In this document: in pieces, positions 2,544 to 59,649 of the stretch
Layout of the letters: every line of letters begins with the position of its first letter
How positions within the stretch are numbered: position 1 is the first letter of the stretch
Program-made: the position numbers and the translations under genes
Assembly: GCA_026026165.1 (NCBI GenBank)
Contig: JAPEUD010000060.1
Span: 1-64,000 of the forward strand
Direction: 5' to 3'
DNA: 64,000 nt
From: Sarea resinae
Lineage: Eukaryota
The notes under the pieces: model-generated
What the model was told of the DNA's origin: nothing
Database searches by the model: none
The model's input: the letters and a program-made list of their open reading frames with translations, nothing else

Positions 2544-2799
2544 TAGGCTAGCATATAGGTTAGGTTAAACAGATTAGAGGCTGTATTTACTAACTCTATA
2601 TAGGTTTCTAGAGTGAACAGATTATAGATATAAAATCTAATCTAGTAGTAAATCAGGTTAGTTTTTCCTTAGCACTACTACATATAATCTTAAAATAGCT
2701 CACATTTAATAGAGATATACATAAGTTAGTGTTATAGAATTTACATGTTATAATGTTCTCTAGATTATAATTAAAGTGATTTACTAGGGTTTACCTCTA

Positions 2800-3900
2800 T
2801 TAATTTATTGTTAAAGGTAATAACTAATAGTAACACTTATTATAAAGAAAAGATCTGTAAACCTATTGCCTTTATACCTCTTTTGCCTCTAAACTCTATA
2901 AGAAAAATATGCCTATTAAGCGCTATAACTACCTAGTAAACACTATATAACTATTTAAAGTAGACTGCTAAATTCTCTATTATCTTCTTTACTAATTATA
3001 TGTCTTTCTACTAGATAGTAACTCTATTAGCATAGATAGCTATATTATTAGAGTCTAAAAAGAGTGTTACTATATACTATTACTTTAAAATATTAAGCTT
3101 AACTTACTATTAAAGATGCTAGATATATAAAGTTCTATTGCTTCTTAAATAGTATTAATAGCAGAGCCTTAGAAATAAAAGGACTTAGATAGATACAGAT
3201 TAGTTACTATTTCCTAGACTAAGTAGTAAAATACTGTCTTTAGTAATAAGAGTTAGCTACCTTTTTAATAGTATTTTATCTAATAAAGCGCGCTTGCTAG
3301 AAGACATTGTATTACTAATATATATTACTATAGAACAGTAGATAAAGAACTTACTACCTAGTTTAGTCTTTCTATAGACATTATTTATTACTAGCTTAGC
3401 TATAGTAAAAGCTTTATTCCTAGCTAAGGTATTATAACACTACTTATTCTATTTCTTATAGCGTTTATTAAAGCTCTTATAGTATTTGTCTTATCTACTC
3501 TAATATAACTTTATAACCTTAGAAAGAGTAGAATGTTTAAAGTTATAGCGCTTTATATATTGCTTAGTGCACTCTATAATTACTGTTTAAGTAAGAGTTA
3601 AAGTAGTTACTATATTCTATTACTATTAAAAAGACTTATATAGAGTAGACTTAATAATAATAATAAGACTTAGTAATAATAATAATAAGACTTAATAATA
3701 GTGTAAGATCTATAAAACAAATAAGTATTACTAGATACTATTACCTTATAATCTTAGATTATAACTCACTTAACTTTAGAGAATAATAAGGTAAAGTAGA
3801 ATTAATAGCTCTAATTAAGTAGGTATATATATACTAGTTACCTTTCTAAGTTACTAGCTAGGATATTAAAGAAGTATAATAATCTAAAGAAAATCTATAG
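2800..3900 (-). pseudogene. Probable intron-containing cargo gene remnant of the outer hAT, product unknown
   Basis: Minus-strand gtaagt...tag intron-like segment at ~3298-3354, with codon-like flanks. No recognisable domain, and boundaries are approximate. Confidence 0.35.
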
Positions 3901-4089
3901 AGGTATAATAGCTAGAGAAGAGAGGTAGTAAAGTAGAGGTGTATAAGTAGTAAGAGAAAGAGTAAGCACTTAGATATATAGGTAAGTAGAAGTGTAGCAG
4001 TATAGTATACTGCGTGCGCTAGTAGTGCAACTCTATATAAGGATTAAGTTTTAGCATAAAAATCATTAAACATCTTAAATATAGTGAAT

Positions 4090-4155
4090 GTAAGAAACAA
4101 TAAATATAAAAAACAATAAATATAAGAAATAATAAATGTAAGAAATAGTAAATAC
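4090..4155. repeat. Tandem repeat, ~17-bp unit (taagaaacaataaata-like) x4
   Basis: Directly visible. Confidence 0.7.
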
Positions 4156-4419
4156 AGTATATACTATAGAGTTATATAACTTTTAAATAGGCTATCTACT
4201 TAGGTACTTACTAGGTAGGTAGAGGTAGAAGAACCTGCCTAGCTATAGGTATTAGGTACTTATACTCTAATTAACCTACCTAATAAAACTTAGTAAGTAA
4301 GCCTAGGTACTTATTATATAATATAAAAATAGTAGCTAAAATAGTATAGATTGTAGAGCATCTTTTACAAAGTATTAAAAAGCTGCTATTACTCTATAAA
4401 TATTACCTATATATATTAC

Positions 4420-5700
4420 TAAGTCTATTAAGTCTTTATTATAGACTAAGTAAAAGTAGAGACTAAAAATGCTAAAAGGTAGAGAAAACTTAGAAGCCTC
4501 TTATAACTTCTTATAACTTATAACTAGAAGACTAGAAAAGCCCTAACTATATCTCTAATTACATCTCTAATTACACTACTAGAACTAGTAAAACCTTAAA
4601 GCTAATGCTATAGAACTTTAACCTATATATTGCTAGAGATCTAGATACTAAAGCCCTTTATTAAAGCCTTTATAAACTAAGTGTCCTTATAATTAATAGT
4701 TATATAGTTCTAATAAATGCAGGCCTAAAGCATATCTAGAAATAATAAGTATAGGATAGAAGAAGAGATTAAAAAACTTACTTTTAAAGAACCTAACTAT
4801 AAAAACCTTAACTATAAAAGCCTTAGTAGCTTCTTATAAGGTATATATAGCTAATAACTAAAAGCAAAGCTCTTTAAAGAGGTAGTAGTAATAAGATATA
4901 ACCTTATAGACTAGGCGCTAGAAAGAGAGCTTTAGAATAACTAGATTAAAAGACTTTTACAATCTCTTAATTTTATAGAGTGCAGATGCTATAGTGTTAA
5001 AATGTTACTATAATATATTACTCTTAGAGTTTTAAGACTAAGACTTACTACTTAGATAAGTGCAATAAAGCTAGATTAGTTTAGGCATACTATAAACCTT
5101 TCTATAACTATAAAAGGCAGTATCTTTATAAACCTATGTTTTTATAGTATCTTTATAGGCCTTTTAGTGTTAAGTATATATACTAGTAGTAAAGCGTTAT
5201 CTAGTAGTAAGAAAACTCTTCTAAGCTACTATACTAGCTAGATTCTTATATAAGGATTTGCTTCTAGTAACTTATTAAGCTTTAGTAGCAGATATACTTT
5301 TACTTTTTTCTTTTCCTTTTCTACTAGCACTAAAGATAGTCTTATAAGTAGTATAGTTAGTATAAGCTATTATCTAATAAAATGTTACTATTAAGTGTTA
5401 CTAGTAGAGATAGGAAAGTATAACTTACTATATAAGTAACTATAATTATATTAAGAGAGTAAGAATTTAGTGTAGAGAGTGCTAAAAGAGAATCTTTAGT
5501 TAGTATTAAAAAACAAATCTAGAGAGTTGTTTATAGTTAGGAAAGGTTTAGCTAAGTGCCTTTATAGCTTTAAATGTTACTTAAATGTGTTACTACTAAG
5601 TAGTAGATCTTAAACTTACCTTAACCTAAACACTTATATAGTAGGCTTCTAATTTGCTTAAATTACTAAGGAGAGCTTCTAACTTAACTAAAAGAGATAG
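4420..5700 (-). pseudogene. Probable cargo gene remnant A of the inner hAT, product unknown
   Basis: Minus-strand intron signature gtaagt (~5619) ... ctaac ... tag (~5520). Boundaries are approximate. Confidence 0.4.
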
Positions 5701-5709
5701 TAAAAAAGA

Positions 5710-6255
5710 TAGAGTTAATAGATTTAATAAAGTCTTAATAATCTTAAAGACAAAATTAATGCAGTTTATTAAATCTTAATAATACTAATAATAGAAGTGA
5801 TAAAGTTTATTAAGTCTTAATAATTTAATAATAGAAGTAATAAAGTTAGAGAGAAAGAGCAATCCTTTTACTATAGGAGAAGGTTGCTAATAATATAGGT
5901 AGTTAGGTTAAATTAAGTAGTAGACCTATATAATATTAAGGTAAATATTCACTGTAAGGTATATACCTTAGTTAGTGTTATTAGCTAGTTAATAAGGTAT
6001 ATACCTTGTAGTAAATGTTATTAACTAATAAATAAGGTATATACCTTATAGTAAATGTTATTAACTGTTTAATAAGGTATATACCTTTTACTTAAATCTT
6101 ATATACCTAGTTCTACTATGTAATTTAACCTTACTACCTATATTATTAGCAACTTTCTTCTATATAAAGAGAAGTGCTATTTCTTATTAACTTTATTACT
6201 TCTATTATTAATATCATTAAGATTTTATTAATTTTATTAATCCTATTAACTCTCT
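5710..6255. repeat. Imperfect long inverted repeat (foldback) enclosing four ~40-bp tandem units, each with the palindrome aaggtatatacctt
   Basis: Arm ggagaaggttgctaataatataggtagttaggttaaatta (~5876-5915) is the reverse complement of taatttaaccttactacctatattattagcaactttcttc (~6121-6160), and similarity extends outward. Palindromes start at 5956, 5994, 6034 and 6074. Confidence 0.9.
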
Positions 6256-6284
6256 AACTGTTTAGGTAGTAGAAAGTAATAAGA

Positions 6285-8350
6285 TAGCTAGCTAATTTCT
6301 CTTTAAATTACTTATATCTCTTATAAGCTCTTTTTAAGATAAGGTAGCTATAGAGAATACTATTATTATAAAGAAGAGGTGAGTTTTAGACTTTTATATA
6401 AGATAAAAGTAAGGTGAAACTAACTTTTTCCTAGATATTATAGCTTACTAGCAGCTCTAAGCTAAGGGTAATATATTAAGGTAATAATAGTACTATAGAA
6501 GGCTTATATTAGTGTAGGAAATAATAAAAGCTTAAGAAAGCTAAATCTAGTATAACTAAGCTAAGTCTAGATATAGAAGAATATAAAGACAATAATTAAT
6601 TACCTATAGATCTTAAGGATAGAGTTATAAACAATTCCTAGTATAGTAGTAGCAGTTAGAAAAGAAGTAGTAATAAGAAGATAGATAGTAAGGCTAGGTA
6701 ATGCATTTAAGTAACACTTTCTATAGATATCTGCTAATAGTGCTACTCTAGTAATAATAGCAGCAATAAAGTTAAGATAGTCTTTATAGTTAAGAAGATA
6801 AAAGCAAAGTTCTTAGATAAGGTTAGAAAAGCAAAGTTTTTAGATAAAGTAAAAAAGGCTTATAAGAAGTAGAAGCAGTAATATATCCTAGTAATAATTC
6901 TAAATACAAAGCTAATAAAGTAATAGGACTATATCTAAGAGATAGAAGTAGAAAGATACTAACCTTAATAATAAGCTAGAGAGCTTAGACTCTTTTACTT
7001 TTAAGAAGAGATATCTAAGGTAATATATTTAGGTAATATTGTTTGCTAGTAACTAATATTAGTGCAACTTATAGTGCAACCTCTATAACTTCCTCTTACT
7101 CTAAGAGAATATTTAACCTAGAGATAGCTAGCCTAGTAGAACATGTAAAAGCCTATCTATAAAGACATTATACTAGTAAGATAAGGCTTAGAATAATTCT
7201 CTATAGTAAACAACAATAGATTACTAGAGTATAGCTTAAAGAAGCAAAGTCTAAAGCATTAGAGTTAGAGCTAGATAGTAAACTCAGCGATACTAAGTTT
7301 AAGAAGACACTAAAAAAAGCAGATAGAGTAGATAGAAAAGCAAAATCTACTTTAAGAGGCAAACTCTACTATAAGAATAGTTATGCTAGTATAATAACAG
7401 CAAAACAATAAGACTTTAAAGAGACTATTATAGACTCTAAAATAGACAAACTAATAGAACAACGCTTTTTCCTCTATTAGTCTGCTAAGTAGGTTACTAT
7501 ATAGTAGTAAAAGGCTATTAAGGTAAAGAAAGTAAAGGCTAAGGATAATAAGTAGATAGTTAAGGATATTATTAATATCTTACTACTTAAAGACAATAGA
7601 GATAGCTAACCTAATAGTAGTGCTAATCCTAAGGTAACACTTTTAGGTAATATTTCTTTACAGCATCTATCTAACTAGTTTAGCAAGGAGAAAATCTAGA
7701 TAAGCCTAACTTATTATTTAGAGTATAGAGTAAACGCATTAGAAGTTGCTTACTAAAAGTAGTTTGCTGCTATAAGAGAGATATCTCTTGCTATAGCTAT
7801 AATAACCTAGTAGAAGCTAGTGATCTTAATTTAAAGGATATAATGTTAGAGTTTATAGAGTAAGTTAAGGACTATATAACTCTCTCTAATAGTAATATAA
7901 AGGCTAAGACTAATTTTACTAGGTTTAGCAATTTAGAAGCAGAAGTATTTCTATTATTTAATAAGGATATTAACCTAATATTAAGTGATAAGAAAGACTT
8001 TATACTGCTAACTATAGGAAAGAAAACTTAGCTAGAGAATATTCCTAAAAGAGAGGACATTTATAAAGGACTTAAAGAAGAGGAATCTACTATTACTAGG
8101 TCTGCTATAGAGGAACCTCTACTAGTAACAGCTAAGAATATTCCTATTAATATAAAGAAGAGTAAGGATAACTCTACTAATAATGCTAAAGAGAAAGGCT
8201 CTAGTCTAATACTACTAAGGATAGTAATAAGTAGAGAGGTAGGTATAGCTAAGTGGCTTTTCTTTATTAGTCTATATTTGCCTAAGGATAGGTTTTCACT
8301 TTTTCTCTAGAATTTAGTTGACTAAGAAGGTAACACTTACTAGTAACATT
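6285..8350 (+). pseudogene. Multi-exon cargo gene remnant B of the inner hAT (charged, coiled-coil-like), product unknown
   Basis: Canonical fungal intron at 6379-6434 (gtgagt...actaac...tag) and a second intron-like segment at ~7020-7074. Purine-rich, K/E-rich coding pattern. Confidence 0.55.
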
Positions 8351-8429
8351 ATATATAATAATTATATTAGGAATGCATATTCTCTTAATTAAATCTTAGC
8401 TATATAAAGTCTATCCTATAACTCTAGTA

Positions 8430-11150
8430 GATAGCTGTATTGTATTACTCTCTATATAGTCTCTCTACTATATTTATTTAGTAATACTTAACTTAGCAAC
8501 CTTTTATATTAATATTTAAGCAAATACTTCTCTAATTAAAAGCACTTCTTATATCTTTACTCTATAATACATTCTAAGGCCTTTTACATTCTTTTGTTGT
8601 TATAAAATCATTCTTTATAATATCTAAATTATTTTAAACATTAGACTATAAGGAACTTAATAATAGTATATAAAGATCTATAGCTATTAAGTCTAAACCT
8701 ATAACTATTACTTTAACTTTAAATTATAATGTTCTAGAGTTATTATAGTAAGATCCTACACAGTGTATAGTTATCTAGCAGCAGTTATATTATAATACTT
8801 TTATATTATAGTAGAAGCAGACTCTCTATATAGATATAAGTTAATATAGAAGCCTTTAGTAGGATTCTAGGTTGTAGAAAAGTATAACCTAGTCTTTCTT
8901 CTTCTAAGTTGCTAATATTGCAACTAGCTGCCTAGAGGTAATATATTAACAATATAGACGTTAATAAAGGCATCTTAGTCTAAAAAGCATTAGCACTTCT
9001 ATAATAAAACAACACTATAGCTCTTTAGATTGTGCTTAGTCTCTTATAGCAAGCTTAATATATACACTTAAGGCTCTTTAGACTATAGTAAGATACTGCT
9101 CTATATAATAGATCTCTTAAGCTAATACTTCTATCTTAATGCTAGTAATATACTATAGTATTAAAGACTCTCTAAACCTTAGAGCTATTCTTTTAGTTAA
9201 GCTAGTAGCGCTTTCTTCTTAAGTTAATTCTATTAGCAAATCTTCTATAGCAGATTATAGAAAACTACTAGTTCTAATAAATCTTCTTTCTTTACTAGCT
9301 AGACCTTTAAATTCTAAGGCGATAGTAGGTTTATAATAGTATTTATAATTAATATACAGAGATTTTACTAAGGATCCTATAGAAACTAGGCCTAGAAATA
9401 AAAATTTCTATTGCACTAGATATATAGCAGAGTCTAAATAAGATCTCTTTTCTTTCTATAATAGAGTATTTTATTAATAAGGACTAGAATTACTAGGAGG
9501 TCCTTATAGAGTTTAAGAAGATAACTAGAGAGCACTCTAGTTATAACATAGCTATATTACTACTTAATTAACTTTAGTGTTTTAATATTTAGGTTTGTTT
9601 CTTATCTTTATAGTAAGGTTTTTAGGTAACATTATATTGTAGGATTATATATTAGCTGTAACAACAAATAATGCAAGTAATAATAACATAATATATTAAG
9701 AGCTAATAAGCTTACTTGCTAATTACTATTAGATTGTATAGGATTATAAGGTTGCTTATATTCCTTACCTTATGTATATTATTTAGCTTATAGTTATAGC
9801 TTTTAATAAGTGCCTAAAAATTACTGCTTTAAATAACTCTATATAAGACACCTAGTTAGATATAAACTAAGAGCTTCTTTAGCAGCTTCTTTCTAAAGAC
9901 TCTTTTAGCAGCATGCTATAGAAAGTAAATTCTAATAATACTTATCTATTGCTATCTCTAAAGTCTCTAGATTTATACACTTACTATCTATATTATAGCT
10001 TTATTATAACAAATAGCGCGCTTTTATAATCTGCAGCTAATGCTAGTAAATATAATCTAAGATATTAAAACTTAATAGAACTTAATATATAATATGCTAA
10101 AGCAGGCCTAGCAGCTATAAGATACTCTTTAAATATTTCTTATTAGTAAAAACAGTCTTACTATATATAGAGCTTATATCTCTTTTACTAGTTAGGACTA
10201 TATTGCTATCTAATTATCTTACTAAAGCTATTTAATAATTAGATAAGAGCTATATCTTAGACTAAAAGAGTAACTATTTATAAGACCTAGTTTATATACT
10301 CTTAAATCTTTAAGCACTTAAAGAAGTATCTAAATAAGATATAGCTTAAGCAAACACTCTAGAAATAAGAGCTTACTTCTGCTATAAAAGTAGTAAAGAC
10401 TAAGCTTTCTAAGTACTACTAAGATACTAAAGGCATATATAGGACAATGTTTAATCTAGCATGTATCTTTAATCCTTTAATAAGGCTTAATCTATATAGA
10501 GTATATTACTTAAATCTATTACCTTTATCTTATTCTCTAGGAATTTTTTGCTAATAGCTAAGAAGTCTAATAACTAGGGCTACAAATATTTGTAAAAGTA
10601 CTAGCGCGAATTTTAAGGAATATTATTAGTTGCATTATATAAGGACTAAAGTTGCTTCTTTAGATATTACTACACTCCTTATATTAGCATTAGATATTAA
10701 TTTACTTGCTTAAGCTAAGACACTTTAAAAGCAGTATTACTTTATTAAGGATCTAATTAGTTAGTATCTATCTTTACTAGCTACAGACTATAAGGATCTC
10801 TTATAGGTAACACTTTTAAGTAATATTCTAGTGTAAAAATGCTAATATTCTACTAGTTCTAGCAAATATACTACTAGCTCTTACTTAAACAAATAGTGAA
10901 AGATATTCTTACTATACCTAGAGCTACTATTAGTGTTAAGCAGACTTTTAATAAGGTATAGGACCTTATTACCTTTTATTAAAGCTAGCTTTTAGCAGAA
11001 ACAGTTTAGAACACTATAGTTATAAAGCACTTTAATTGCAATAAACTTTGTTTATATATTAGTAAAAGTAAATCTAATAGTATTTTTAAAGAAACTATTT
11101 ATTAACACTTGCTATTAGCTGAATTTAATAATTATTTACTTGTTATTAGT
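8430..11150 (+). pseudogene. hAT transposase remnant (inner element)
   Basis: ILAVTTNNASNN at ~9650 corresponds to the TDNASN catalytic Asp motif. PYLMYII at ~9765 corresponds to CxxH, DIKT**NLIYNML at ~10062 to DVxTRWNST, and GATISVKQTF-like at ~10920 to the dimerisation-domain xxVERxF motif. Confidence 0.88.
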
Positions 11151-11493
11151 AATAATAAGGAGCTAATCTTAGTTAATAGTGAGCCTGCAATATAGAATAA
11201 TATAGACCTATATAGGTTTTCTAGTAATAAACACTCTTTACTACTTCTAGCTCTACTTAGAGTGTAGATAGATACAGCTGCTTTATAGCAGCAATCTTTG
11301 CTTTAACGCTCTAGGTAACACAATTCTTAATATATATTATCTTAAAGAAAGCGCCTGCGTTTAACTATAGATAATCTATTTATTAGATTAAAGGTATAGA
11401 GGTACTCTTTTAGAACTAGTCTATTTCTTTCTTAATTGCATAAATAATTATATATATAGTTGTTTACTTTATACATACTATAGTATATACTAG

Positions 11494-11880
11494 TGTGAGA
11501 GATCAAACTAGATCGCACTAGATAAGTGCTAGACAGTCCTAAAGATATAAGAACTGCTGAATTGTAATAGCGCTGCTATGCTTAATAGTTGTTAAGTGTG
11601 TTACTATCTTAGGTCTCGCTACTAATATGTCTTAGAGAACTTAAATAGGCAGCAGAACAAGTGTATCGATTAATATAAGCTATTAGCCTATAGCCTAGTA
11701 ACTAAGCAATAAGAGGAAGAGAAAAACTAATGTGCTAACTGCTTGCTTAACTAAATGCTAGAAAACTAATAACTAAATGCGTGTATAAAGAACTAATAAT
11801 GCCTCCTTTTAAACCTCTAAAGAACACAACCCTACTACTAACACCTAATAACTAAGCTATTGCTAGTTTACCCTATTATA
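11494..11880 (-). repeat. 3' LTR of the Ylt1-like Gypsy
   Basis: Direct repeat of 22868-23254, adjacent to the polypurine tract ggagagaagga (minus strand). Confidence 0.95.
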
Positions 11881-11899
11881 TCCTTCTCTCCTACAAAAA

Positions 11900-14800
11900 T
11901 AAAGTTGGCCCTTAACTTTACTAACACATAAAAGACATGTCTGTTAAGGAAAAGGTAGGAAAAGCATTCCTATAACTTGTTGCTCTTACACTTCCTAGTT
12001 AAGCGGCAGAGAGATAGGTCTGTTACCTGTCTATACAATTGTAGCATTTCTTGTATAGTCTAGCTATCGAACAGATTAGACAACTTATTCCCTAGTAGCA
12101 GAGCTTCTTAAACACTTTTATAAGGAGATGTTTTAGGATTTAATAATGCTGCGGTTTTCTGCTTCTTTAAAGGACAGGCTAGGAATAGTCCTTGTTGTTT
12201 ACGCTTGTTAGGTTTAGAACTCCTAGCCTGTCTAGAAGAACCTTTGCTAATTATATTATAGGTAAGGTCTTAGGAGAGTTAGTTTGTTAGATTAAGTAAT
12301 TGCATTGCTTTTATTATTAGTTAGTCTTAGACTTAGGCAAACTCTTTGCTTGCTGCCTTTTCTATGTTATTATTAGTAAAGACTAGCTTAATATCTAATT
12401 TAACAGCGAACTTTCTCTTAGCTAGGCTAGAGGAAACAATTTTATAGAGGTCTTCTAAAACATCTGATTCTTCTAACTGTTTAGAGTCTGTGTTATTATT
12501 AGATACATGTGTTCTGTGTTCTATAGAGTAGAAATATAATTTGTTTCTATAGAGGCGCATTTCTATTCGCTTAAATACCTTAAAGGCTTTGCAGTATTAG
12601 CTTAGGGCTTAGTGTCTCTATCGCTAAAGATATCTAGTAACCTTGTCTGTATTGTCCTCTATAAGAATTCTTTGCTCCTCTATAACTTCTAGCTTATTAA
12701 ATCTCCTCCTTCTAACTAAGTAATTAGACGTAGCCTCTAACTCTGTTAATAAGACTGCCGCTAGAAATTTACTTAGGACCTCTCTATACATGTTAGGATG
12801 CCTGCTTAGGCTGTTTAGTAGAGGCGTTAGGTCTCTAAAACATGCAGATATATTCTCCTAAGTTCCTAACTCTAAAGCCTCTAGAGTCTAGTAGTTAGTA
12901 TAGACACAAACTTTCTACAGATAAATAACGTGGCAGCAAGCTGTTAGCTTTTTAGTAGTCCTATAAGCGGCCTTAGGATTTGTAACTCAGAGGTCCTAGG
13001 CTTAAAGAGGCTACATAGTCTTTATTATGCTAAATCTTTCTTTGTCTGCTTTTGTAACCTATCTTCTATTAATAGTAGTAACTTTCCTAGTATGTGTGTA
13101 TAGCTTTAGGTCGCGTTTCTTAACTTCTTTAGCCTAAAGTTTAAAGGAATAACTTATGCTAAAGTAGACTATAGTGCAATTTTGTTTATCCTTAGGTTTA
13201 ACAGCGATAGCGAATTGAATTATATTTGCGCCTTAGTCCTCCTTAGCTAGCTTACAGACATTCTAGTCTAAATAGTAGAAACCTATATAGTTGCCTTTAG
13301 ATAAGGATTTAGCATAGTAAGGATAGCTAATAAGCTGTATGTTCTAGTCTAGCTAGCAGAAAACAGTAATTAGGTAATGCTATAGGTCTATATTAATTAG
13401 CTGCTAGAAAAGAGAGTAGAACATTATCTAAACCTAACTCTAATTAGCTTTCCTATTAACCTTGTGTTAATAATGTTTGTAGCACGCAAATTCTTCCTTT
13501 ACTATATCTGCTAGTCTAGGTGCTAACTCTATCTATTAGTAAGCTTTGTTAATAATAACCGATCTATTTTTGTCCTAGTCTGCTATATATGTCTTAAACT
13601 GCTGTTTAGTGTAGGTATAGGTAGGTATAAACTCCTCTATATTAGTTTCTGCCTTTAACTAGTATAACTCTCTAGCATCTGCTAGGCGCTTAGGTTAGAT
13701 CTTCTTACTAAACTAAACATAGGTTTCCTTCTTAACTATAAAATCCACGAAATCTCTTAGCTAGGCTAGGAGCTCCTAAAATTGTCGTCCTAATTCTGCG
13801 TCTAAAGCATTATTCTTTATGCTAATACACAATGCAAGTGCCCTTATATAGTTTTAGTAAAGCTGTTTAGTATTATGCGTCGCGTTAATTGTCTCCTACG
13901 TTTGTAATAGCTTAATCGCGATTGTAGAGGTAGCTAGTTTCTTGCTTACAACTGCATCTAAGAGCAAAGCTAGGACCTATAGAGTACATTTACAGCCTTT
14001 AACAACTAGCTTCTGTTTGACTTTAGATTCCTTTAACAGAATTTTTAGGCCTGTCTAGGAGTTCTTAACTAGCTGTAATACTCTAATAGTTAAATTTAAC
14101 ATGATATTCTTAGCCCTAAGCAATAACAACCTAGTAGCAAGTGCTTTCTTTTCTAATTCCTCTTCTAGAAACTCCTTAGGTTCCTTCTCTTTATTATTGT
14201 TAGCAGTAAGTCTCTTCTTTACAGCGTCTTTATAATCTGTCTTCTTCTTTAGTAGATCTTACAGGCTATTCTATTCTAGGTTAGCTTCTCTAAGGATCCT
14301 ATGCACATTAATAAGTGCTCCTACTATCTAAAGGTCTTTCTTAGTAAATAAGAAGATTTCTAACTTTTTGCCTTTCTCTAACTTTTTAAAAGCCTTTGCT
14401 AGTCGTTCTTAATCCTTAGAAGTTTGCTTAACAACAGATTTAGAAAGCCCTTGCTTTCTTCCTCTTATAAGTCGTTGTATAGCTTCTGAGTTTGCTATTC
14501 TTATCGCCTCTTTAAATAGATACTAAGCTGCAACATACTTTATATTGTCTAGGTAATTTCTAGACATTTCTGCTTCTAGCAAATAACAGGCATTATTATC
14601 TCTCTACTTGTTTCTAATCTTTTATCTTCCTTTAGCAATGCGCTTCTTCTTATTATAGGATTCCTTAGTAAGATTAAATATCTTAAGGATATTGCCTGTC
14701 TAGTGCGTCTTAACATACTTAGCTAACACTAAGTCCTTTTTAACTTCTTTAACACTCTATTTATACATCTACAAATAACAGGTATAGTGCTTGCTTATCT

Positions 14801-15300
14801 TATTAATAAAAGTCTTATAGAAGTCGACTTTTTCTTAGGGGTTAGCTATTATACTTATATAAGTGTAAATAGATTCTACATTCTAGAATAGGATGCTAGA
14901 AATAGTTATAAACATATCTTTTGCCTTAAGCGCTGTTGTACTAGGTGTAGCTAGTGTAAGAGAGGTGTAGGGCAAGGTAGAAGACATGTTAGTCCCTTAG
15001 TTTTCTTCTAGTTAGTCCTAGAGATTAGACTGTGTGACATGTCTTAGAGAACTTAACTTAGCTGCTAGCGCTTCTAATATTAAGGTGTCTACTTCTTCTT
15101 CCTAGGTATCGCCTTTAAATTCTTTACAGATAATAGAGAGATTAAGCTGTGTAGTAAGGGTGATAAAAAGGTCCTAGCTATTGCCTTTAGACAAGATAGA
15201 CAAGGGTGCTAGGGTTTCTTCTTACACAGACAATTGCTAGCCGGCTATTTTTAGCGATTCTTATCTCTTAGACTGTCTAGAAGATTAGAGAGAGCAAATG
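11900..15300 (-). pseudogene. Extra ORF in the Gypsy 3' region, with a putative PhyH-like 2OG-Fe(II) dioxygenase domain at ~12640-13600
   Basis: A single frame reads ..MFYSLF*QL..LISYPYYAK..GFYYLD*N..GANIIQFAIAV..NCTIV..DL*VTNPKAAYRT..CCHVIYL*K..ELGT*ENISA... Reverting RIP gives H-L-D (13274-13266), a distal A-H-G (~12964) and R-R. ORF 12333-12560 is a C-terminal fragment. Start and end are approximate. Confidence 0.7.
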
Positions 15301-16299
15301 TCCTTAAGGGTATAAAAAGATTTTTCTCCTAGGAATGCTAGGAGATTGTAAATAACTATAGAGCGTGATTAGATAAGAGAGGTAATTATGCAGATTTTCG
15401 CTTATTATCTAATAAGGCGTTAGACAGCAAGTGCTAATAGTAAGCGAGCTAATAAGGTAGAGAGCATAAGCGAGCTAATTAAGAAGAGAGGTCTATAATA
15501 GGTGAATAATATTAGAAGAGCAGATAAGATAGCGGCAGTAGAAATTGCATAAGAAGTAGGAAAATATTTAGAGAAGATAGAGGCAAGCAAGTAGAAGATG
15601 TTTTCTTATAGTCCTTGCTTAGAGTGTATGTGACTAGATTCCTACTAATAATCGTTAGATATTAGCGTAAAAAAAGTGTTATCTTGCTTTTCTTTGTAGT
15701 GAAATTTAGCGTGTTATTAAGCTGAAGTAGTAGCTGTAGCGTTAGTGATACGCTTAAGCAAGGTTCTTTATTGTCTGTATCGCTTCTTTATTTACCCTTA
15801 CTTTTATACGTGTTTTGCACCTAAAAGTAAGGTGAAAGTGAGATAAATTTAAGATAAGGTTAAGCGAGTAGTAAGAACAGTCTCTGCAATGCTAGTCGAG
15901 GCAAATAGTAGTAGTAAGGCAGATATATAGTGCTTATGCAAGTTAGGAATGCTTGTTATACTATTTTACTAACTTATAGCGTGTTGTTAAATTCAGATAG
16001 AGGCTGTATACTCTGCAGTGTTACTCTTTAGGTCTGTCTAGGAGATTAGGCTAGCAGAGTCTGTTTTGCCTTAATATAAGCTAAAGAAGTAAAGTAATAT
16101 AATGTGTAATAAATTAGAAATGTTATCACAGATTATTAGGTATGCTGTGCTATACAACATAAGCTGCGCCTCCTACACCTCTAGCAAGGTAGACTGTAGT
16201 TAAAAAGATCTAGCTAGACAAGGTTATGCATATACACACCTCTCTCTAGTTTCTTTTAAAACTTCTAGCTAGGCTAAAAAGTTTTGTGCTATATAATTA

Positions 16300-19200
16300 G
16301 CTAAGGTAGGATAACAATAGCGAACGATCTTCTATAAGGCACTAAGGCCTATAAGGCCTTGTATTCTTCTTAAGTTACTTGATTATTATTATCCTTAAGG
16401 TCCTTAGACTAAGTATTATTAGCATTATCTGCAGACTTATCTTTAATCAGATAATTAGGTATAGGGGTAGGCGATTGCGTGTTCCTTGCAGAATTAGGTA
16501 GAGAAGGTTAGCACATAAATTTCTTTAGACAATTTCTAGGTGCAGTGCTGTTTAACTTAGCGCTATTAAGTTTAGCAAGCTAGTAAGTTCCTTAGATAGG
16601 GTCAGCCTATATAACACAATAGAGGCTTATCTACCTATAGCAGAGTTTGCTTTAGAGCGAGTAGTCTGTAGCAAGCTTAGTGTTATGTAGTAATACTATA
16701 TTATTAACGTTAAATTTATCTAGGCAGAGATTATAAACTTTATTAAATGCTTCTTTACTTTGTTCACACATGCAGTGTAGATATAGCTAGGTCTCTTATA
16801 GATCTTTATCGCGGCGTTACATTTGCTAAGCCTATAATGCTAGTAATTCTGCAGTAGTTTAGACTAAGTTCTAGTCTAATACGTGCTAGGTAAGAAGGTC
16901 TAATTTAATAAGCAAGACTGCGTTGTATCTGTATAGCACTTAATAAGGTGTCTAGCTAGTAGAAACTCAAACTATAGTGCGGTCAGCCTATAGGACTATG
17001 TGTAAGTTCTAGACCTAATTTCCTATGCCTCTGTCTGTTATCTTAGCTAGTGCATTAACAATAGAGGTATAACCTCTTTCTACTAGGCTATTTGCTTGCA
17101 AGTAGTATACTAAGACTACAACGTGATTGATTCTGTACTTCTCTATAAGAACATGTATAGACTGCTTGTTCTCTAGTCCTCTATTAGTAACTAGCTTCTA
17201 AAAGCATCTGTAGCAGCAGATAATATCCTTGTAAAGGAATTTAGCAATAGTAGCAGAGGTAGCGTCTCCTATAGCGCGTGCTTCTACCTAGCTAGAAAAG
17301 TCATCCTAGGCAATAATAATATTCTTCCTATTCTAGCAAGCTAGTATATGTATTATGTTAAGGCTAACCTTCTCCTAACAGGCAAAAGACTAGGTTAGGT
17401 GCAAGGCCTTCTCTTTCTATTTAGAGGCTCTCTTCTAACACTTCTAGCAGCTCTTAATATATATTACTACTTCTAGATATAGATCGCTCTACTAGTATCT
17501 ATCTGCAATGCGCTAATAGGTGCCTTCTTAGCCTCTGTGTCCTCCTTAATTGTAGGCCTCCTCTAGGATGCAGGCTTTATTAGCGTCTTAGTTAATAACT
17601 CTTTAAAGTAGTATATTCTTAGAGGCACGCTTAAACAAGTGTTAGTCGCGAACTGAGAATTTTAGGGCGTGATTCTTAAACTTGCAGAACTCTTTTGCGC
17701 TTATTTCTGCTGGCTAGACTAGAGAAAGAAGCTATTATACAATCTTCTGCAATTTGTCTAAGTAACTATCCTTAAGAGGTAATAGAGGTTCTGCCTTTAC
17801 GCTGTCGCTATTTACAGATATAGGAAAGACTTAAACAAGGTATAACTCTAAGTCTATCACGTTGTTAATATCTGCCTTGTTTTCTATATTAGCAATATCT
17901 TCTGCAGTAGCTAGCTGACAAGATAATCTATTAGCAGCACTATGCTTTTAACTAGGAACATGTTAAACAGTAAAGTTAAAAAGGCAGATCTATGCAAGCT
18001 ATTAAGTGATAAGAGCACTAGGAAGGTCAGCTGCAGGCATATTAAGTTGTGTAACTAGGGTATTAGCATCGAGTTCTACTACAAAGGTCTAACTGTATAG
18101 GTAGACTTAGACTTTCTTTAGCGCCTTTAGCAGGCCTTAGTATTCTTGCTTTCCTGCATTGTACTTTTTCTCTGCGTTGTTCTAGAGTCTACTCTTAAAT
18201 CAAATAGAGTGCTGTTTTCTAGTCTCTAGATTAACCTGTATAAGGTTCGCTCTCTAGCCTTCTCTACTAGCATTAACTCTAAGTATAATCTCTTCTTCTC
18301 CTAGTCTATAGATAATTGTCACTAGTGCTAGCGCAGTAGTAAGAGTGTACTTTAGCTTATCTATAGCTAACACCTAATCTAGTCTCTAGACAAATTTAAT
18401 ATCCTTCTTAAATAAGATAAAGATCAGCCTAGCAATAATAGCGAACCTGTTAATAAAGATCCTATAGTAGACGCATATGCTGATAAAAGCCTTAGCTTCT
18501 GTAACATTCTAATAATTAGGCTATTTAACAATCTTTAGCACTTTAGTGCTGTTAGAGTGTTAGCTGTCTAAGTTGCAGACATAGCTAACAATCTTAATGC
18601 CTTCTATACAGAATTAAGATTTCTTACTAGATACTATACAGCTAGACCGCTCTATGTCTGCTAGAACCTTATTAAGTAATTAGATATGCTTAGCTATATA
18701 GCGCCTGATTCTAGGTAAAATTTCTTTGCCTTTATAGTTAGATTAAGGCCCTTTAACACTAATGTTATCTAGAAAAGGTTAAGTAAGATTAGGAATGTAG
18801 TCGCTAAGAATCTTTGTAATAATGCAGACAAATTGCGCAACTAAGTTTATAGCTTTTTAAGGTAAAGTTGTCTAGCAAAGCAGGCCTAGAGGTGCTATAA
18901 AGGCAGTTATATCCTAGCATTCCTCTACTAGTTCGATCTGATTATATCCTAAGAAGAAATCAATAAGTAAGGCAACTTACATGCTAGCAAATTCCTTAGA
19001 AAATTCTTCTACTAAAGGCAAGAGGTTTGTGTCTTAAATTATAACCTTGTTTATTGCTATTACTGCATTAACTATGCGATACTTTCTAGACTTCTTCTTA
19101 ACTAAGAACTATAGGTTTTAGTACAGTCTGTAGCAGTGTTCTAATAACCTATTCTTTAATTGTTCTTATAGCATTTTAATAACTACTCTGTTTAATGCTT

Positions 19201-22200
19201 GTAGAACTAAAAAACTATTAGCTTGCTAAGCAGTATGCAGAATAGTTTGTATCTCTTGCGCTAGCGCCACCTCCTTTTAGACCTTGCTAATTTCTAAGAA
19301 GTCCTATGTAAAGGCCTTCTTACAATTATAAAGCATTGTAGTAAGCATCTCTTTCTCTTAATCTAATATGCTATCTCCTACAACTATTGTCTCTAATCTT
19401 TTAGGTGTAATATAAGATCCCTTTTGCAACTTTAAAAACTTTAGAATTAGCAACGCGTTAAAGTCTTCTTCTAGACAGTCTAGGTCTTTTTCGTGTAACG
19501 TTCTGTGGTTTAACATGTCTTTCTCTTCTAACTCTCTTTTCTAGTCTTTTGCTTCTCTAGGCTTGCTACTATCTAACACTAAAGTGTTAACTAGTCTAAC
19601 CTTATCTCTCTTTTTCTTATACATTGTATAGATATAGGCTAAGTCAACGTTTCCTTTTAGATTTAACTCTAGATTAAGCATCCTCTTAGAAAACTAGTAA
19701 GTTTCCCCTTAACCTATATGTAACGCTTTAAACTCCTTAACTAAATCATTATTCCTCTAGTCTGTCCTAGAGAAATCTCTAGCCTTGTTATCTAGTTTCT
19801 ACCTGTCTTCTTCTTCTAAGCCTTGCTGTGTTAGTCTTACAGTTATAGTAAACACTTGCTTAGGATAGCGTCTGCTATCTAGTTTAAACAGTTCTAGCTA
19901 GAGAACACATTAGCATACCTTCTATCAGATAAATTTCCTACTTATACTGCACTAAACATCTTTAAATAACGTTAGTCCTCTAAGAATATAGTGCACATTG
20001 TTGTTCTGTTGTCCTACACCTTAGTGCGTATACAAGCAGCAATCTAATACAGTTGACTAAGGATAAGCAGTCGATCTAGTTAAGTAGTGATAAAAATAGG
20101 TACCCTGCTAGTAATACCTCTAATATTGATTTTAATATCTTTAGCGTATCCTATAAATAGTGCTAGCTTTCCTTTAATGCTAATCATTGTAGTAGCTAGT
20201 TAAGGAGTCTAACTTAGCCTAAGATTCTTTGCTGTTAATAGACTTATCAGATATATCTTAGCACTACTATCTAACAGTCCTCTTATTCTTCTTTTTCCTT
20301 TAATACTTACTTCTGCTATTATACACCTAGCAGTATATAACGTGGAATTCAGTATTTCCTTATTAGTATAATTGTTGCTTTCTATCTTTCTAACTATTAC
20401 TAGGCGATCTATATTATGCTGTCTAGCTGCGAGATAGCCTTCTAACTTTCTGCCTAAAGAGTACAACTTATCTCTAAGGTTCTTAAAGAAAAGCTTCTAA
20501 ACTTTAGGCGCATTTAAAAGAAGATCCTTTACTATAACGTGGTTAAGCTGCTGATCTAGTATTATATCTACAATAGAAGTAGGGTTAGTATCTTCTCTAA
20601 GGTAATTAGACAATTAGTGTTAACAAGCCTTTTGCTAATATGTTTCTTCTACCTTATCTATTAGCTCTAGCTTAGCAAACTCTACTCTCTTCTTAGAACT
20701 GCTAGCTAGACTAGGATATTGCAGAGGCTGTTCTTTATAACAGACTATATCTCTCTTCTTAAGAACACAACTGCTCTAGTACGTCCTAAGGCAGATGTTC
20801 TTAGCTGCAAGCAACTTTTCTTCCTCCTAAATTCGCCTCTTATAGACTCTAGCATCTAGGTCTTATATAGGTTTCTATGTAGCAGAGTTAGATCCTTACC
20901 TAAGGATCCTCTTAGGTTGTCTTGCTAAATAGACATTCGATTAGTTATAGTCATTAGCTTCTACATCTGTGTTATCTAGCTTAAGATCTGCTGCACAAAT
21001 AGAACTAACTCTTACTAAGTTAACCCTTAAACTAAGGCTTAGTTGCTCTTTCCTTTTGTTATACATCCTTTTCTATTCTCTATTAGCAAACAAGGCTTAA
21101 TATTTGCTAGGAGGAATATACAACTCTGCTTTGCCTTATCCTTTAGGACTCTAACACATTTAACAATGTTTGTTAAAATAAATCTTCCTACTTATAAAGA
21201 GCTGCTGCATTAGCAGGCAATTAGCGAATCTATAGCGCTAGTCACTGCATCTAAAACATCTAGTTAATTAAGCACAGTTTGTATCGCAGGCTAGATCTGC
21301 TCTATTATTCTGCTAGCTAGTCTAGTAGTTTAGTGCACTTGCGACTTTTAGGGCAGAAGATAGCATCTAAGTAAAGAGCTTAGCAGTGTTTGCAGCACTT
21401 GCTGTAACTGCCTTAATTAGAATTATTAAGCTAGCTAACCTATCTGCTAATTTGTCTATAACCTTATTAACTTTCTTACTTGCTGTTCCTTCTATATAAT
21501 CTTGTATAACTAGAGGTTAGAGTAGCTCTACTACAGCAGCCTTTAGAGCTAGGTGCTGTCCTTTAATTAAGGTCTTTACTATCTTTGTTAGCTCTGTCTT
21601 ATTTAGCTTCTGCAGTGCCTGTATAGATTGACATTGCTTAATAGCGATATTAAAGATCTTCTTAAAGTCGATATTAGTAGGGTTGTAATTGTCTAGGTTA
21701 ATATAGCCTCGCGTGATAACTTTGACTTAGATCTCTTAGAGAAGGCCTTAAAGGAACTATAACATGCGAGTATAGGCATTAAGCTTGTTTTTCTAGCATA
21801 GGGTTTAAGAGATGCTCTAGAACTAACAACAATATTAACAGATCTCCTCTGCATTCGAACAAGGTTTCTCTTTAAGGGCTTTAAGGTAAGTTTAGGAGTT
21901 GATTTGCTGCTCTACATCCTAATTAGAGTAGTCTTTTAGCAGCGATTTCTTAAACTCATCCTAATCTACAAGATACTCTAGCATAGTCTTAATACTGCAA
22001 GACATAATACTCTTATAATAACATAGGAGCCGCTTAAACATCTCTATTTAGTTAAGCTAGTAATCCTTATATAGTCCTTTATATCTCTTAAGGAACTCTA
22101 TAGCGTTCACCCTGTTGAAATATAGTACGCTATAGGTCCTAGAGGACAGTATAGAGGTGAGATAATGTATAGTAGGTAGGAATGCAGTGCTAGCAGCTAT

Positions 22201-22650
22201 TGTAGGTAGTGTTAGTAATTCTAGTAAACTGTCTCCTAAAAAGTGCAGAGAGGAACGCGTTTGTATAGCAGTAACAATTGCAGCTGCAATAGAGTTTGCT
22301 GTTTCTTAAATAATTGCTTAAACAAATTGTGTTAACTTGTAAGGGCACTTGTCTTATTTGCTGCTTTTAACTTTCTTATATTTAGACCTTGTCTTACTCT
22401 TACTAATCTACTTATCTCTAGTAGCGCCTTAAACATCCCTTAGCGCACTCCTTAACGTATAATAAAGCTGTTCCTTCTATCTGTTCTCTCTATATACTAC
22501 ATAATAAACTGCCTTATCGCTAAATAAACTGTAAGCTGTTAAGGATCGCCTCTAACCTCCTTAGATAAATAGCTGTCGCCTAACTATTTTAACAATAAGA
22601 TCTAGCTAGTCTAGTAGAATTTTTCGTTGTGTAATCTCTAAACTTTATGT
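16300..22650 (-). pseudogene. gag-pol: gag-pol remnant of the Ylt1-like Gypsy (gag, zinc knuckle, protease, RT, RNase H, integrase)
   Basis: CCHC-like knuckle CFRCSD*RYRFANC at ~21220-21262. Protease GLLDSSAKIYLIS in ORF 20209-20466. RT at ~18500-19200, RNase H at ~17930-18290, integrase at ~16500-17560. Confidence 0.92.
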
Positions 22651-22867
22651 CTTTGTTTCTAAATTCTTTTAGGGTCTCTGCAATTCCTACTTCTTATCTC
22701 TCTTGTATTGTGCTAACCTTTTAGAGTCCTAATTGTACAGGCTAGGTTTTGTACTAGCCTTGCAGATCTAGCAACCCTTCTGTGTATCCTTTAAGCAGTG
22801 TTTATACTTATCTGCAAAGCACTTTCTAGTTGAATCTGTGTTGTTTAAGCCCTATATAGGTTACTAA

Positions 22868-23254
22868 TATAAGGGATCAAACTAGATCGCATTAGATAAG
22901 TGCTAGACAGTCCTAAAGATATAGGAACTGCTAAATTGTAATAGCGCTGCTATGCTTAATAGTTGTTAAGTGTGTCACTATCTTAGGTCTTGCTGCTAAT
23001 ATGTCTTAGAGAACTTAAATAGGCAGTAGAACAAGCGTATCAATTAATATAAGCTATTAGCCTATAGCCTAGTAACTAAGCAATAAGAGGAAGAGAAAAA
23101 CTAACGTGCTAACTGCTTGCTTAACTAAATGCTAGAAAACTAATAACTAAATACATGTATAAAGAACTAATAATACCTCCTTTTAAACCCCTAAGAAACA
23201 CAACCCTACTACTAACACCTAATGACTAAGCTATTACTAGTTTACTCTATTACA
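22868..23254 (-). repeat. 5' LTR of the Ylt1-like Gypsy
   Basis: 387-bp direct repeat, followed on the minus strand by PBS-like ttagtaacc (RIPped tggtaacc). Confidence 0.95.
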
Positions 23255-23899
23255 CTAGATTTAGTTTTAGTAAAATATACTAGGTTATAAATGTTTAAAG
23301 AATAAGTTAATAGGTTTTTTTAGAGTAAATAGTATATAGGATATACTAATATAACTATATAGAGTGTATTATTATCCTATAATTTTTATTCTACAACTCT
23401 TATAGTCTTATTACTTTTGTCTCTAATATATTACCTCTATATATTACCTTTTAATAATCTTATCTTATTAATCTACTCTTTATCTTATTAATTAACCTAT
23501 ATATACCTACTAGGTAGGCCTTAAGCTCTACAGCTAATTAAGCCTACCTAAAGCTTAATTTAGGTTAGGTACCTAAACTTAAGTAGATAGCCTACTTTTA
23601 AAGCATTATACTTATAGCTTTTAACTTCTTTCTTCTTTAACCTTCTTACTTCTTTCCTTAACTTATTACTTACTACTTACTACTTCTTCTATCTCCTTTA
23701 CTATTAATTTTTTCACTAATTATCTATAAACTTAATTTCTATTCTCTCTAGACATTGCACTATATAATAGTAACAGTATATAGTAACTAAGAATAAAAGT
23801 TTATACTATATTAGCTAAAATTTAGTTTTAGAAAAAGGATAGCTAATTTCTCTACTAAAACTCTTTAGAAGAGCACACTTTTATTACCTTAATATTATA

Positions 23900-59200: not shown

Positions 59201-59649
59201 CTTAAAGAAAAAAGCAGGCAATTGTTAGGAGTAAGCGTCTAACTATATAGCGTGTATTATGTATATAGCGTACTTATATATCTATAGCTAGTTTAACTTG
59301 CTTAAAAGCAACTAGAAGATATAGTTTTAGCAAAGAAGAAGAGTTTTACATGTATATCTACCTATAGGCTTAACATAGGTGTACTATATAGGTCTGCTAG
59401 AGTTTATACTTTTTCTAGGTAAGAGCGATATAATAATTGTGCTTAGAAAGTCCTATCCTAATATAAGCTTAATATAAAGGTGTGTGTTAATTAACATATA
59501 TATAGAAATAGAAATCACTGCCTTATCTACCTATATTAGTATAAATGTATAGGTTGCCTATATACTAACACTAATATTACCTAACTAATAACTTAGTCAC
59601 TCTTTAGACTTTTAAACTCACCTCTATAAATATAACGTGTAAAGCAATT

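Follow-up and report, generated by a model that had tools for sequence, protein, structure and literature searches.

Is the long reading frame between the integrase and the polypurine tract of a degraded Ty3/Gypsy retrotransposon of Sarea resinae a gene of that element, and what would its product do? The element lies in a stretch of 64,000 nucleotides (contig JAPEUD010000060.1 of assembly GCA_026026165.1, positions 1 to 64,000; hereafter the window), where an initial annotation, made from the sequence alone, had noticed the frame, here called ORF3, and had taken it for an Fe(II)/2-oxoglutarate (2OG) oxygenase. We conclude, with a probability of roughly 0.78, that ORF3 is the third gene of an 11.8-kb Ty3/Gypsy element and codes for a PhyH/Gig2-like oxygenase, and that this copy of it was destroyed by repeat-induced point mutation (RIP). 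Homologues of ORF3 were found after pol and inside paired long terminal repeats (LTRs) in at least five divergent Gypsy lineages.

ORF3 in a RIP-degraded Ty3/Gypsy element

The element spans positions 11494-23254 of the window on the minus strand. Direct repeats of 391 nt (11488-11878 and 22862-23252) are 94.1% identical, and all 23 differences between the two LTRs are transitions. Read from the junctions, the 3' LTR occupies 11494-11880 and the 5' LTR 22868-23254 (387 bp each), with TG..CA-type ends that are changed by transitions in the 3' LTR and resemble the termini of the LTR of L019, an intact relative described below. An exact 4-bp target-site duplication, CTAG, flanks the pair at 11490-11493 (3' side) and 23255-23258 (5' side). 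The purine run AGGAGAGAAGGA at 11881-11892, directly inside the 3' LTR, is the putative polypurine tract, its position being analogous to that of GGGGGAGGTA before the 3' LTR of L019. With stop codons read as X, minus-strand frame 2 of the RIP-degraded pol region (16457-19690; reverse transcriptase, RNase H and integrase) matched the Pfam families RT_RNaseH (1.2e-10), RT_RNaseH_2 and Integrase_H2C2. RT_RNaseH precedes Integrase_H2C2 in this single frame, which is the domain order of Ty3/Gypsy elements, and pol of the intact relatives runs Asp_protease, RVT_1, RT_RNaseH, Integrase_H2C2, rve. In tblastn comparisons the window pol was 40% identical to that of L019 across 19633-16517, 35% identical to that of L045 and 32% identical to that of L042. 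The duplication, the LTRs and the pol domains thus bear out the flanked Gypsy element of the initial annotation, and the stretch that separates pol from the polypurine tract, put there at ~4.4 kb, measured ~4.5 kb.

The window is AT-rich throughout (GC 24-40%), holds only two ORFs of at least 60 aa between 5000 and 22000, and has a TpA/ApT ratio of 1.77 (1.83 within the element); in these three respects it has the look of DNA struck by RIP. ORF3 (12333-14987, minus strand) runs in the same sense as pol from an ATG at 14987 to 12336, which makes 884 codons, and closes with a stop codon at 12335-12333. It is interrupted by 47 in-frame stops (34 TAG, 12 TAA and one TGA) and by no frameshift, so the separate same-sense frame described earlier stands, at a length of 2.65 kb instead of roughly 3 kb. 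The X read-through of ORF3 matched 374 proteins at E<=1e-3 in a phmmer search of 1.84 billion cluster representatives (175 at <=1e-10 and nine at <=1e-30; best match 1e-40), and its alignment with the homologues is colinear over the entire length, first Met to C-terminus (~880 codons). For these two reasons the frame is not a product of chance.

The damage to ORF3 is of the kind that RIP leaves. Codons for W, Q and R are those turned into stops by C>T/G>A changes, and the homologues have one of these residues at 19 of the 42 columns in which the window has a stop, against 89 of the 671 other columns (Fisher p 1.4e-6), in agreement with the earlier claim that the stops are revertible by such changes. 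Among 79 columns conserved at >=88%, the window retains 41, and most of the others differ as transitions would have it (His>Tyr, Gly>Arg/Ser, Pro>Leu, Arg>Cys/stop, Trp>stop). The best-conserved part of ORF3 is the core of the oxygenase domain, a double-stranded beta-helix (DSBH), at 12519-13514, which was found by tblastn with the corresponding domain of L019 ORF3 at 27% identity (E 5e-31). There the HxD metal-binding motif (13266-13274) reads Tyr-Leu-Asp: the His codon at 13274-13272 is TAT, where the homologues have His in 25/25 (column 572), and the Asp codon is GAC, where 24/25 have Asp (column 574). The distal His-Gly of the facial triad (12960-12965) reads Tyr-Arg (TAT AGG), the His codon at 12965-12963 being TAT; column 675 is His in 25/25 homologues and column 676 Gly in 24/25. 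The conserved Arg-Arg at 12930-12935, putative binder of the 2OG C5 carboxylate, reads Cys-His (TGC CAC), at columns that hold Arg in 25/25 (685) and 22/25 (686) homologues. The initial annotation had placed the two lost His at 13274-13272 and ~12964, and both places proved exact. Since both iron-binding His, the Arg pair and 47 codons are mutated, the window copy can do nothing; it has been destroyed by RIP.

A chance low-stop stretch, or an unrelated insertion nested in a dead element, would be in keeping with a frame that cannot be read without passing 47 stops, with the blank Pfam result for the X read-through of this heavily mutated copy (no family matched), and with the spacer between pol and ORF3 (14988-16456), which at ~1.5 kb is longer than the 0.1-0.8 kb of intact relatives and has no recognisable coding content (no protein match, and only a 26-nt repeat of 1.9 units at 15441-15490). 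Such an artefact can practically be dismissed in view of the best match at E 1e-40, colinear across 880 codons, the enrichment of stops at W/Q/R columns, and the recurrence of the same gene order within the LTR pairs of six relatives.

ORF3 homologues within paired LTRs of other Gypsy elements

A metagenome scan returned 334 relatives of ORF3, and 80 loci (L numbers) were kept, 48 of them with an informative upstream flank. Gypsy pol lay directly upstream on the same strand at 38 loci and was absent over at least 6 kb upstream at ten, while the flank was too short at the remaining 32. One family, which includes the L019 type, accounts for 36 of the 38 pol-linked loci, and L016 and L042 represent two other lineages. 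L045, a locus with a short flank, is a permuted contig that reads ORF3, a 464-bp LTR gap, gag-pol and ORF3, its two ends repeating each other.

A complete element, L019, is contained in a contig of 10.9 kb and has LTRs of 274 nt that are 100% identical. It carries gag and protease (471-3512), pol (3497-7102; RVT_1, RT_RNaseH, Integrase_H2C2 and rve) and ORF3 (7456-10419; 950 aa from the first likely Met), and its 3' LTR begins 50 nt past ORF3. The same family includes a further intact element, L018, whose LTRs are likewise 100% identical. Altogether, gag-pol-ORF3 was enclosed by LTR pairs at L016, L018, L019, L031, L040 and L065, so that homologues do lie within paired LTRs next to pol, as the initial annotation had suggested should be looked for. 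All four relatives whose junctions were read have 4-bp duplications (L019 CTAC, L065 ATAG, L031 TTAT, L040 CTAG), and the LTR ends of the relatives resemble those of the window element. Between the lineages of L019, L016, L042, L045 and the window, pol is 32-49% identical (40-49% without the window). In the LTR elements ORF3 has a fixed place within the LTRs: it always follows pol, in the same orientation, and precedes the polypurine tract. Several Gypsy lineages of filamentous ascomycetes that have diverged from one another have it as a regular constituent.

Purifying selection acts on ORF3 as strongly as on pol. In the comparison of L018 with L019, a single element pair from two samples, the ratio of nonsynonymous to synonymous substitution rates (dN/dS) was 0.085 for ORF3 (dS 0.33), 0.091 for pol and 0.198 for gag, and 0.066 for the C-terminal oxygenase part of ORF3. 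Because the values of ORF3 and pol are so close within elements whose LTRs are identical, we consider the two genes to be equally strongly selected. The sequencing runs listed for L019 comprised no RNA run and seven DNA-type runs, one of which contained at least half of the L019 words.

At L045:8218-8373 (pol residues 2101-2152) there is a sub-threshold Chromo match at the C-terminus of pol (22.3 bits against a cut-off of 25.1), and on account of it the ORF3-bearing elements may not all be of one lineage but may, on this sequence match, span chromovirus-like and other Gypsy lineages. No Chromo domain was matched by Pfam in pol of the window, L019 or L042.

Many of the homologue-bearing contigs are 10-13 kb long (among them contigs of 11780, 10873, 11682, 10517, 12372, 11373, 11007 and 11002 nt), about the length of one element, which would fit a repeat-limited assembly of single elements.

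The ORF3 protein family and its predicted fold

The family comprises hundreds of proteins of ~700-1000 aa, and those in the matched set are mostly ~900 aa long. All named homologues come from Pezizomycotina (Leotiomycetes, Eurotiomycetes, Lecanoromycetes, Arthoniomycetes, Dothideomycetes and Xylonomycetes), and one record labelled 'Sphagnum' is probably a fungal contaminant. They are annotated as hypothetical throughout, except for two JGI labels that read 'PhyH'. The Pfam family PhyH (PF05721) was found in 4 of the 14 top homologues (P0014 at 1e-8 with 36.1 bits against a cut-off of 22; P0021 with 22.8) and in 10 of the 26 rows of alignment A1 at E<=0.01. At that threshold no row of A1 matched PF07350 (Gig2-like/DUF1479), to which the likeness is by fold only, and the TET_JBP and AlkB-type families had no match in the 14 homologues or the 26 rows.

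Fold prediction was done on the intact ORF3 of L019 in place of the mutated copy of the window. The AlphaFold2 model of residues 395-900, built on a 79-row alignment, had a mean predicted local distance difference test score (pLDDT) of 95.9 and a predicted template modelling score of 0.87. With this model Foldseek returned 245 matches to PDB entries at E<=0.001, with DUF1479, SnoN/SnoK, EvdO1, GriE, EctD and proline hydroxylases at the top. In an exhaustive structural search the best matches were YbiU (4rgk; Z 20.9, root-mean-square deviation 3.1, 275 residues aligned) and Candida GIG2 (6akz; Z 20.4), followed by other PhyH-clan enzymes at about Z 15-13, among them human PhyH (2a1x; 13.8) and PHYHD1 (3obz; 13.0). 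AlkB homologues reached Z 8.1-8.5 and NgTET1 Z 8.2 at rank 45, so there was no close fold match to AlkB or TET/JBP. Features and structures of the ESM Atlas also pointed to PhyH/Gig2-like clusters. According to these models, the C-terminal domain of ORF3 is a PhyH-clan DSBH that is nearest in predicted fold to the Gig2-like/DUF1479 proteins.

Six residues of the predicted active site (H246, D248, H347, G348, R357 and T359 in the numbering of the model) are invariant in all 19 intact locus sequences and at least 90% conserved in 79 sequences. In the PhyH layout an Arg stands ~10 residues past the distal His, and the spacing of R357, 10 residues after H347, agrees with it; by this analogy R357 would contact the C5 carboxylate of 2OG. 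As judged from the alignments, ORF3 keeps the complete set of residues expected to bind the metal and the co-substrate, and from sequence and model together its intact product is likely to be a working oxygenase. The PhyH-like layout that the initial annotation had read from the damaged copy (HxD, distal HG and downstream R) is therefore the layout of the intact relatives, in which the triad is invariant and ORF3 as a whole is under selection. That reading could have failed on the absence of the His from homologues, of a DSBH from the predicted fold, or of homologues from paired LTRs; the His are present, a DSBH is predicted, and homologues lie inside paired LTRs after pol.

Upstream of the oxygenase core, the protein has a motif of the form CxC-(~43 residues)-CxxH, a disordered linker and an N-terminal helical domain. 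The motif is nearly invariant and stands at the start of the folded C-terminal half (L019 ORF3 residues 399-448; L019:8650-8799), on a helical segment formed by residues 1-130 of the model; from its sequence it is a probable zinc site. The window (13994-13848) keeps the CxC part (13986-13994, with TGT at columns 332 and 334, which are Cys in 25/25 homologues) and has Tyr in place of both the partner Cys (column 377) and the partner His (column 380). The N-terminal domain (L019 ORF3 residues 39-250) was modelled as helical with a pLDDT of 88.2; against the PDB its best score was Z 7.2, to generic helical repeats, so that no fold was assigned to it and no nucleic-acid-binding fold was recognised. 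Some members of the family also have basic C-terminal tails. An intact ORF3 product would thus be a protein of ~900-950 aa in which a helical N-terminal domain, a disordered linker and the CxC...CxxH motif precede a C-terminal Fe(II)/2OG oxygenase.

Forms fused to pol, or longer forms, were not found among 4675 candidates, which is weak evidence. A scan of IMG/VR viral contigs with A1 gave 37 pattern matches and none was confirmed, and a fold search of BFVD returned PhyH-type proteins of giant viruses and phages only, with none from reverse-transcribing viruses.

Free-standing homologues and movement of the gene

The gene also lives outside LTR elements, since 10 of the 48 informative loci have no pol within 6 kb and none of the eight examined among them has LTR-like flanking repeats, only short tandem arrays being present there. 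In view of the same eight loci, the idea that the free-standing homologues are LTR elements that lack pol was dropped. One of the ten, L060, belongs to the degenerate L019-type family, and the others carry uninterrupted ORFs of 755-1170 aa. The neighbours of the free-standing homologues are varied: a SNF2-type helicase at L003 and L013, a DEAD/Helicase_C gene at L008, a DUF6589 gene at L037, Helitron and Tc5/pogo transposase genes at L034, the conserved host gene Hid1 at ~5.5 kb from the homologue at L025, and genes for TPR and Sel1 proteins together with an integrase-like ORF at L002.

In a tree of 136 rows (LG+G4), LTR-borne copies were scattered among free-standing ones, at four places or more, and the window sequence was on a long, unplaced branch. 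In a mixture-model tree of 13 rows, holding the five LTR-borne rows together cost 46.5 log-likelihood units (approximately unbiased (AU) test, p 0.00016), a result that leans on L016, which is degenerate and of biased composition and groups with L002, L003 and L005 (support 93/96). A single origin of the LTR-borne copies was thus rejected, and the gene must accordingly have changed at least twice between LTR-borne and free-standing locations; the trees are unrooted and do not give the direction.

Some of these results would fit a passenger, that is, a host oxygenase gene captured by transduction or template switching and without a role in the element. The free-standing homologues that lack flanking direct repeats, the proximity of one of them to Hid1, the more than one transfer between contexts, and the fact that PhyH-clan enzymes are mostly small-molecule oxygenases all favour this explanation. 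A passenger, however, should decay, whereas ORF3 is intact and in the same place across lineages whose pol genes are 40-49% identical; its dN/dS, at a dS of 0.33, is as low as that of pol, its catalytic set does not vary among the intact sequences, and that it became associated with LTR elements repeatedly suggests that the element benefits from it. We therefore consider a passenger origin improbable, and retain ORF3 as a component gene of the Gypsy elements.

Some features near the homologues may be mentioned in their own right. At L003 (10990-15960, minus strand) and L013 (3897-6628, minus strand), the SNF2-type gene is convergent with the ORF3 homologue, and since the ORF3 proteins of these close relatives are 81% identical, the shared neighbour may be simple synteny; the DEAD/Helicase_C gene of L008 lies at 6704-8648 (plus strand). 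ORFs of ~1280 aa stand upstream of free-standing homologues of different clades at L005 (4481-8344, plus strand) and L012 (518-4354, plus strand); they show homology to one another (24% over 448 aa, E 3e-20), match no Pfam family, and may represent either a partner gene that recurs or a gene of a transposon. Tandem arrays are found directly upstream of the homologue at three free-standing loci and one LTR-borne locus, with units of 16 nt (L012:8456-8714), 103 nt (L023:7936-8247), 76 nt (L054:8353-9062) and ~98-217 nt (L042:7809-8123). Finally, the integrase-core ORF of L002 (6515-7618, plus strand; Pfam rva_4, 2.3e-10) is located 2 kb upstream of the homologue on the same strand and had no match to the Gypsy pol query used.

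RIP and the anti-silencing hypothesis

Could ORF3 protect the element from genome defence? The initial annotation had proposed that it counters host methylation or RIP, as a nucleic-acid- or chromatin-modifying enzyme. The relatives offer a direct view of RIP in this family. L065:1483-12120 and L019:127-10743 differ at 1468 positions, of which 1452 are C>T/G>A in the direction from intact to degenerate, five are reverse transitions and 11 are transversions; because this signature is almost pure, L065 is a freshly RIP-mutated copy of an element near-identical to L019. Copies of the L019 family in the same samples have 14-29 stops in the 506-residue domain, and RIP-type changes riddle 36 of the 38 pol-linked metagenome copies. 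The proposed action against RIP is weakened by this damage; a role against other silencing routes is untouched by it.

In its general form, the anti-silencing hypothesis holds that ORF3 acts on methylated DNA, RNA or histones, removing the methyl mark or oxidising it, and so opposes methylation-linked silencing or RIP. In its favour, transposons in which a 2OG oxygenase has become fixed are already described in two reports (PMC12730594, PMC9289625). The CxC...CxxH motif, the N-terminal helical domain and the basic C-terminal tails of some members are absent from small-molecule PhyH enzymes, ORF3 is under selection within the element, and the hosts are Pezizomycotina, which bear RIP. Against these points stand a fold that is near to the Gig2-like/PhyH type and far from AlkB (Z 8.5) and TET (Z 8.2), the lack of TET_JBP or AlkB-type Pfam matches in the proteins searched, an N-terminal domain in which only generic helical repeats were recognised, and the heavy RIP mutation of the family despite its ORF3. 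We regard an anti-silencing role as doubtful. No result obtained here points to nucleic acid or chromatin as what the enzyme acts on, as the initial annotation had proposed; the nearest folds are Gig2-like or those of small-molecule enzymes, and such a target appears unlikely.

Other features of the window

The region between pol and the 5' LTR (19691-22867, minus strand) is assigned by position to gag, protease and the leader, following the order gag, protease, reverse transcriptase, RNase H and integrase of the intact relatives. No second copy of the element was found within the 64-kb window. Two further pairs of direct repeats are present, one of 300 nt with 95% identity (47946-48245 and 54994-55293, 7048 nt apart) and one of 152 nt with 92% identity (43392-43543 and 59222-59373, 15830 nt apart). 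They may be the LTRs of other degraded elements; neither pair had a match to the Gypsy pol queries used.

Discussion

We interpret ORF3 as the third gene of a Ty3/Gypsy element, coding for a PhyH/Gig2-like oxygenase, and several results weigh against this interpretation. The gag gene of the window element was not recovered, either with the Pfam read-through or with gag of three relatives. By sequence, the family belongs to PhyH only marginally, with no Pfam match for the ORF3 of L019, for P0001 and P0002 or for 16 of the 26 rows of A1, and searches of solved structures by sequence (profiles A2 and A4) gave low-complexity noise and then nothing at E<=10. The estimate of selection comes from one element pair, and the free-standing loci, with neither pol nor LTR-like repeats, show that the gene is not confined to LTR elements. 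ORF3 gives no protection from RIP, given that both the window and the copies of its relatives are heavily mutated. In addition, the neighbours in the predicted fold, which act on small molecules or are uncharacterised, favour a small-molecule target, and for that reason a metabolic role unrelated to transposition is a real possibility.

What the product would do for the element, if anything, can be outlined conditionally. Env-like third ORFs of LTR elements are made from subgenomic, spliced or internally started RNA, and by analogy ORF3 is somewhat more likely than not to be expressed from a transcript of one of these kinds. Its product would then hydroxylate or demethylate a macromolecule, for example RNA, DNA, chromatin or a protein of the element, and in this way aid replication or the escape from silencing. 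The presence of extra domains speaks for a macromolecular target, as does the repeated fixation in transposons. Whether ORF3 acts for the element at all is, in our estimate, an evenly balanced matter. A wider and quite tentative proposal is that Gypsy elements of filamentous ascomycetes, some of them still active, repeatedly took up and kept a multidomain PhyH/Gig2-like oxygenase that acts on a macromolecule (RNA or cDNA of the element, chromatin at the insertion site, or its own Gag or integrase) and thereby promotes replication or blunts genome defence, in which case the free-standing copies would be domesticated or donor forms.

The closest parallel in a retrotransposon is that of the orchid Phalaenopsis, where, according to the portions of the report concerned with these elements, 25-kb Ty3/Gypsy elements contain an AlkB-type ORF with demonstrated N6-methyladenosine RNA demethylase activity, proposed by its authors to serve the element (PMC9289625). 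The initial annotation knew of no characterised example in LTR elements, a statement that this orchid ORF makes out of date. The orchid elements and the window element are alike in being Gypsy LTR elements with an extra Fe(II)/2OG oxygenase ORF. As far as that account goes, they differ in host (a plant against fungi), in length (25 kb against 10-12 kb), and in the enzyme, which is of the AlkB type in the orchid and in the fungi a predicted one, PhyH/Gig2-like with extra domains and with a best Z of 8.5 to AlkB. TET/JBP genes are known in fungi as cargo of DNA transposons (KDZ and others) and of Helitrons, and the relevant part of a 2025 survey states that no retrotransposon carries them (PMC12730594). 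This cargo, as presented there, resembles ORF3 in consisting of 2OG oxygenases that are fixed in fungal transposons and move between lineages, and the ORF3 tree likewise needs repeated transfers; ORF3 differs in its LTR carriers, in a fold at Z 8.2 to TET and in the lack of a Pfam match to TET_JBP.

Among the enzymes themselves, the Gig2-like/DUF1479 proteins (YbiU of E. coli/Yersinia, 4rgk, and GIG2 of Candida albicans, 6akz) are the best fold matches, with ~280 residues aligned and scores well above the next at about Z 15. Their sequence identity to ORF3 is 12-13%, however, and ORF3 is twice as long, with extra N-terminal domains. To our knowledge, YbiU appears among the E. coli 'y-ome' genes of no known function. 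With PhyH (PF05721; 2a1x and 3obz) ORF3 shares the predicted fold, the HxD...H...R layout and, in part of the rows, weak to moderate Pfam matches, whereas most ORF3 proteins fall below the PF05721 threshold and have no sequence match in the PDB. The PhyH members we know of are single-domain metabolic enzymes and are not carried by transposons.

As for the carriers, the ORF3 elements have the same order of protease, reverse transcriptase, RNase H and integrase, the LTRs and the target-site duplication of fungal Ylt1-like and chromovirus Gypsy elements, to the extent that these are described in the pertinent sections of two surveys of fungal LTR elements (PMC2864245, PMC3248453). L019, L042 and the window, with no Chromo match, are compatible with the Ylt1-like lineage, a comparison that does not amount to placement in a clade by phylogeny. 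The same sections describe chromodomains and 'complex' nested elements and make no mention of an oxygenase ORF (PMC3248453, PMC2864245). A full-text literature search, with Repbase and subscription journals outside its scope, found no description of ORF3; the one paper in which 'phytanoyl-CoA dioxygenase', 'Gypsy' and 'transposable element' occur together deals with a metabolic gene that has nothing to do with it. What is new here is a transposon-borne 2OG oxygenase of a different family, in fungal retrotransposons and under selection in several Gypsy lineages.

Accessory enzymes fixed in retrotransposons are rare and tend to stand where element and host are in conflict. L018 and L019, both intact and each with identical LTRs, could be expressed and assayed directly, and several hundred 'hypothetical proteins' of Pezizomycotina gain a name. 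ORF3 thereby offers an entry to two questions, namely what Gig2-like/DUF1479-type oxygenases do and how fungal retroelements meet genome defence. If ORF3 does act on a macromolecule, it would be to retroelements what the TET/JBP genes are to the DNA transposons of fungi.

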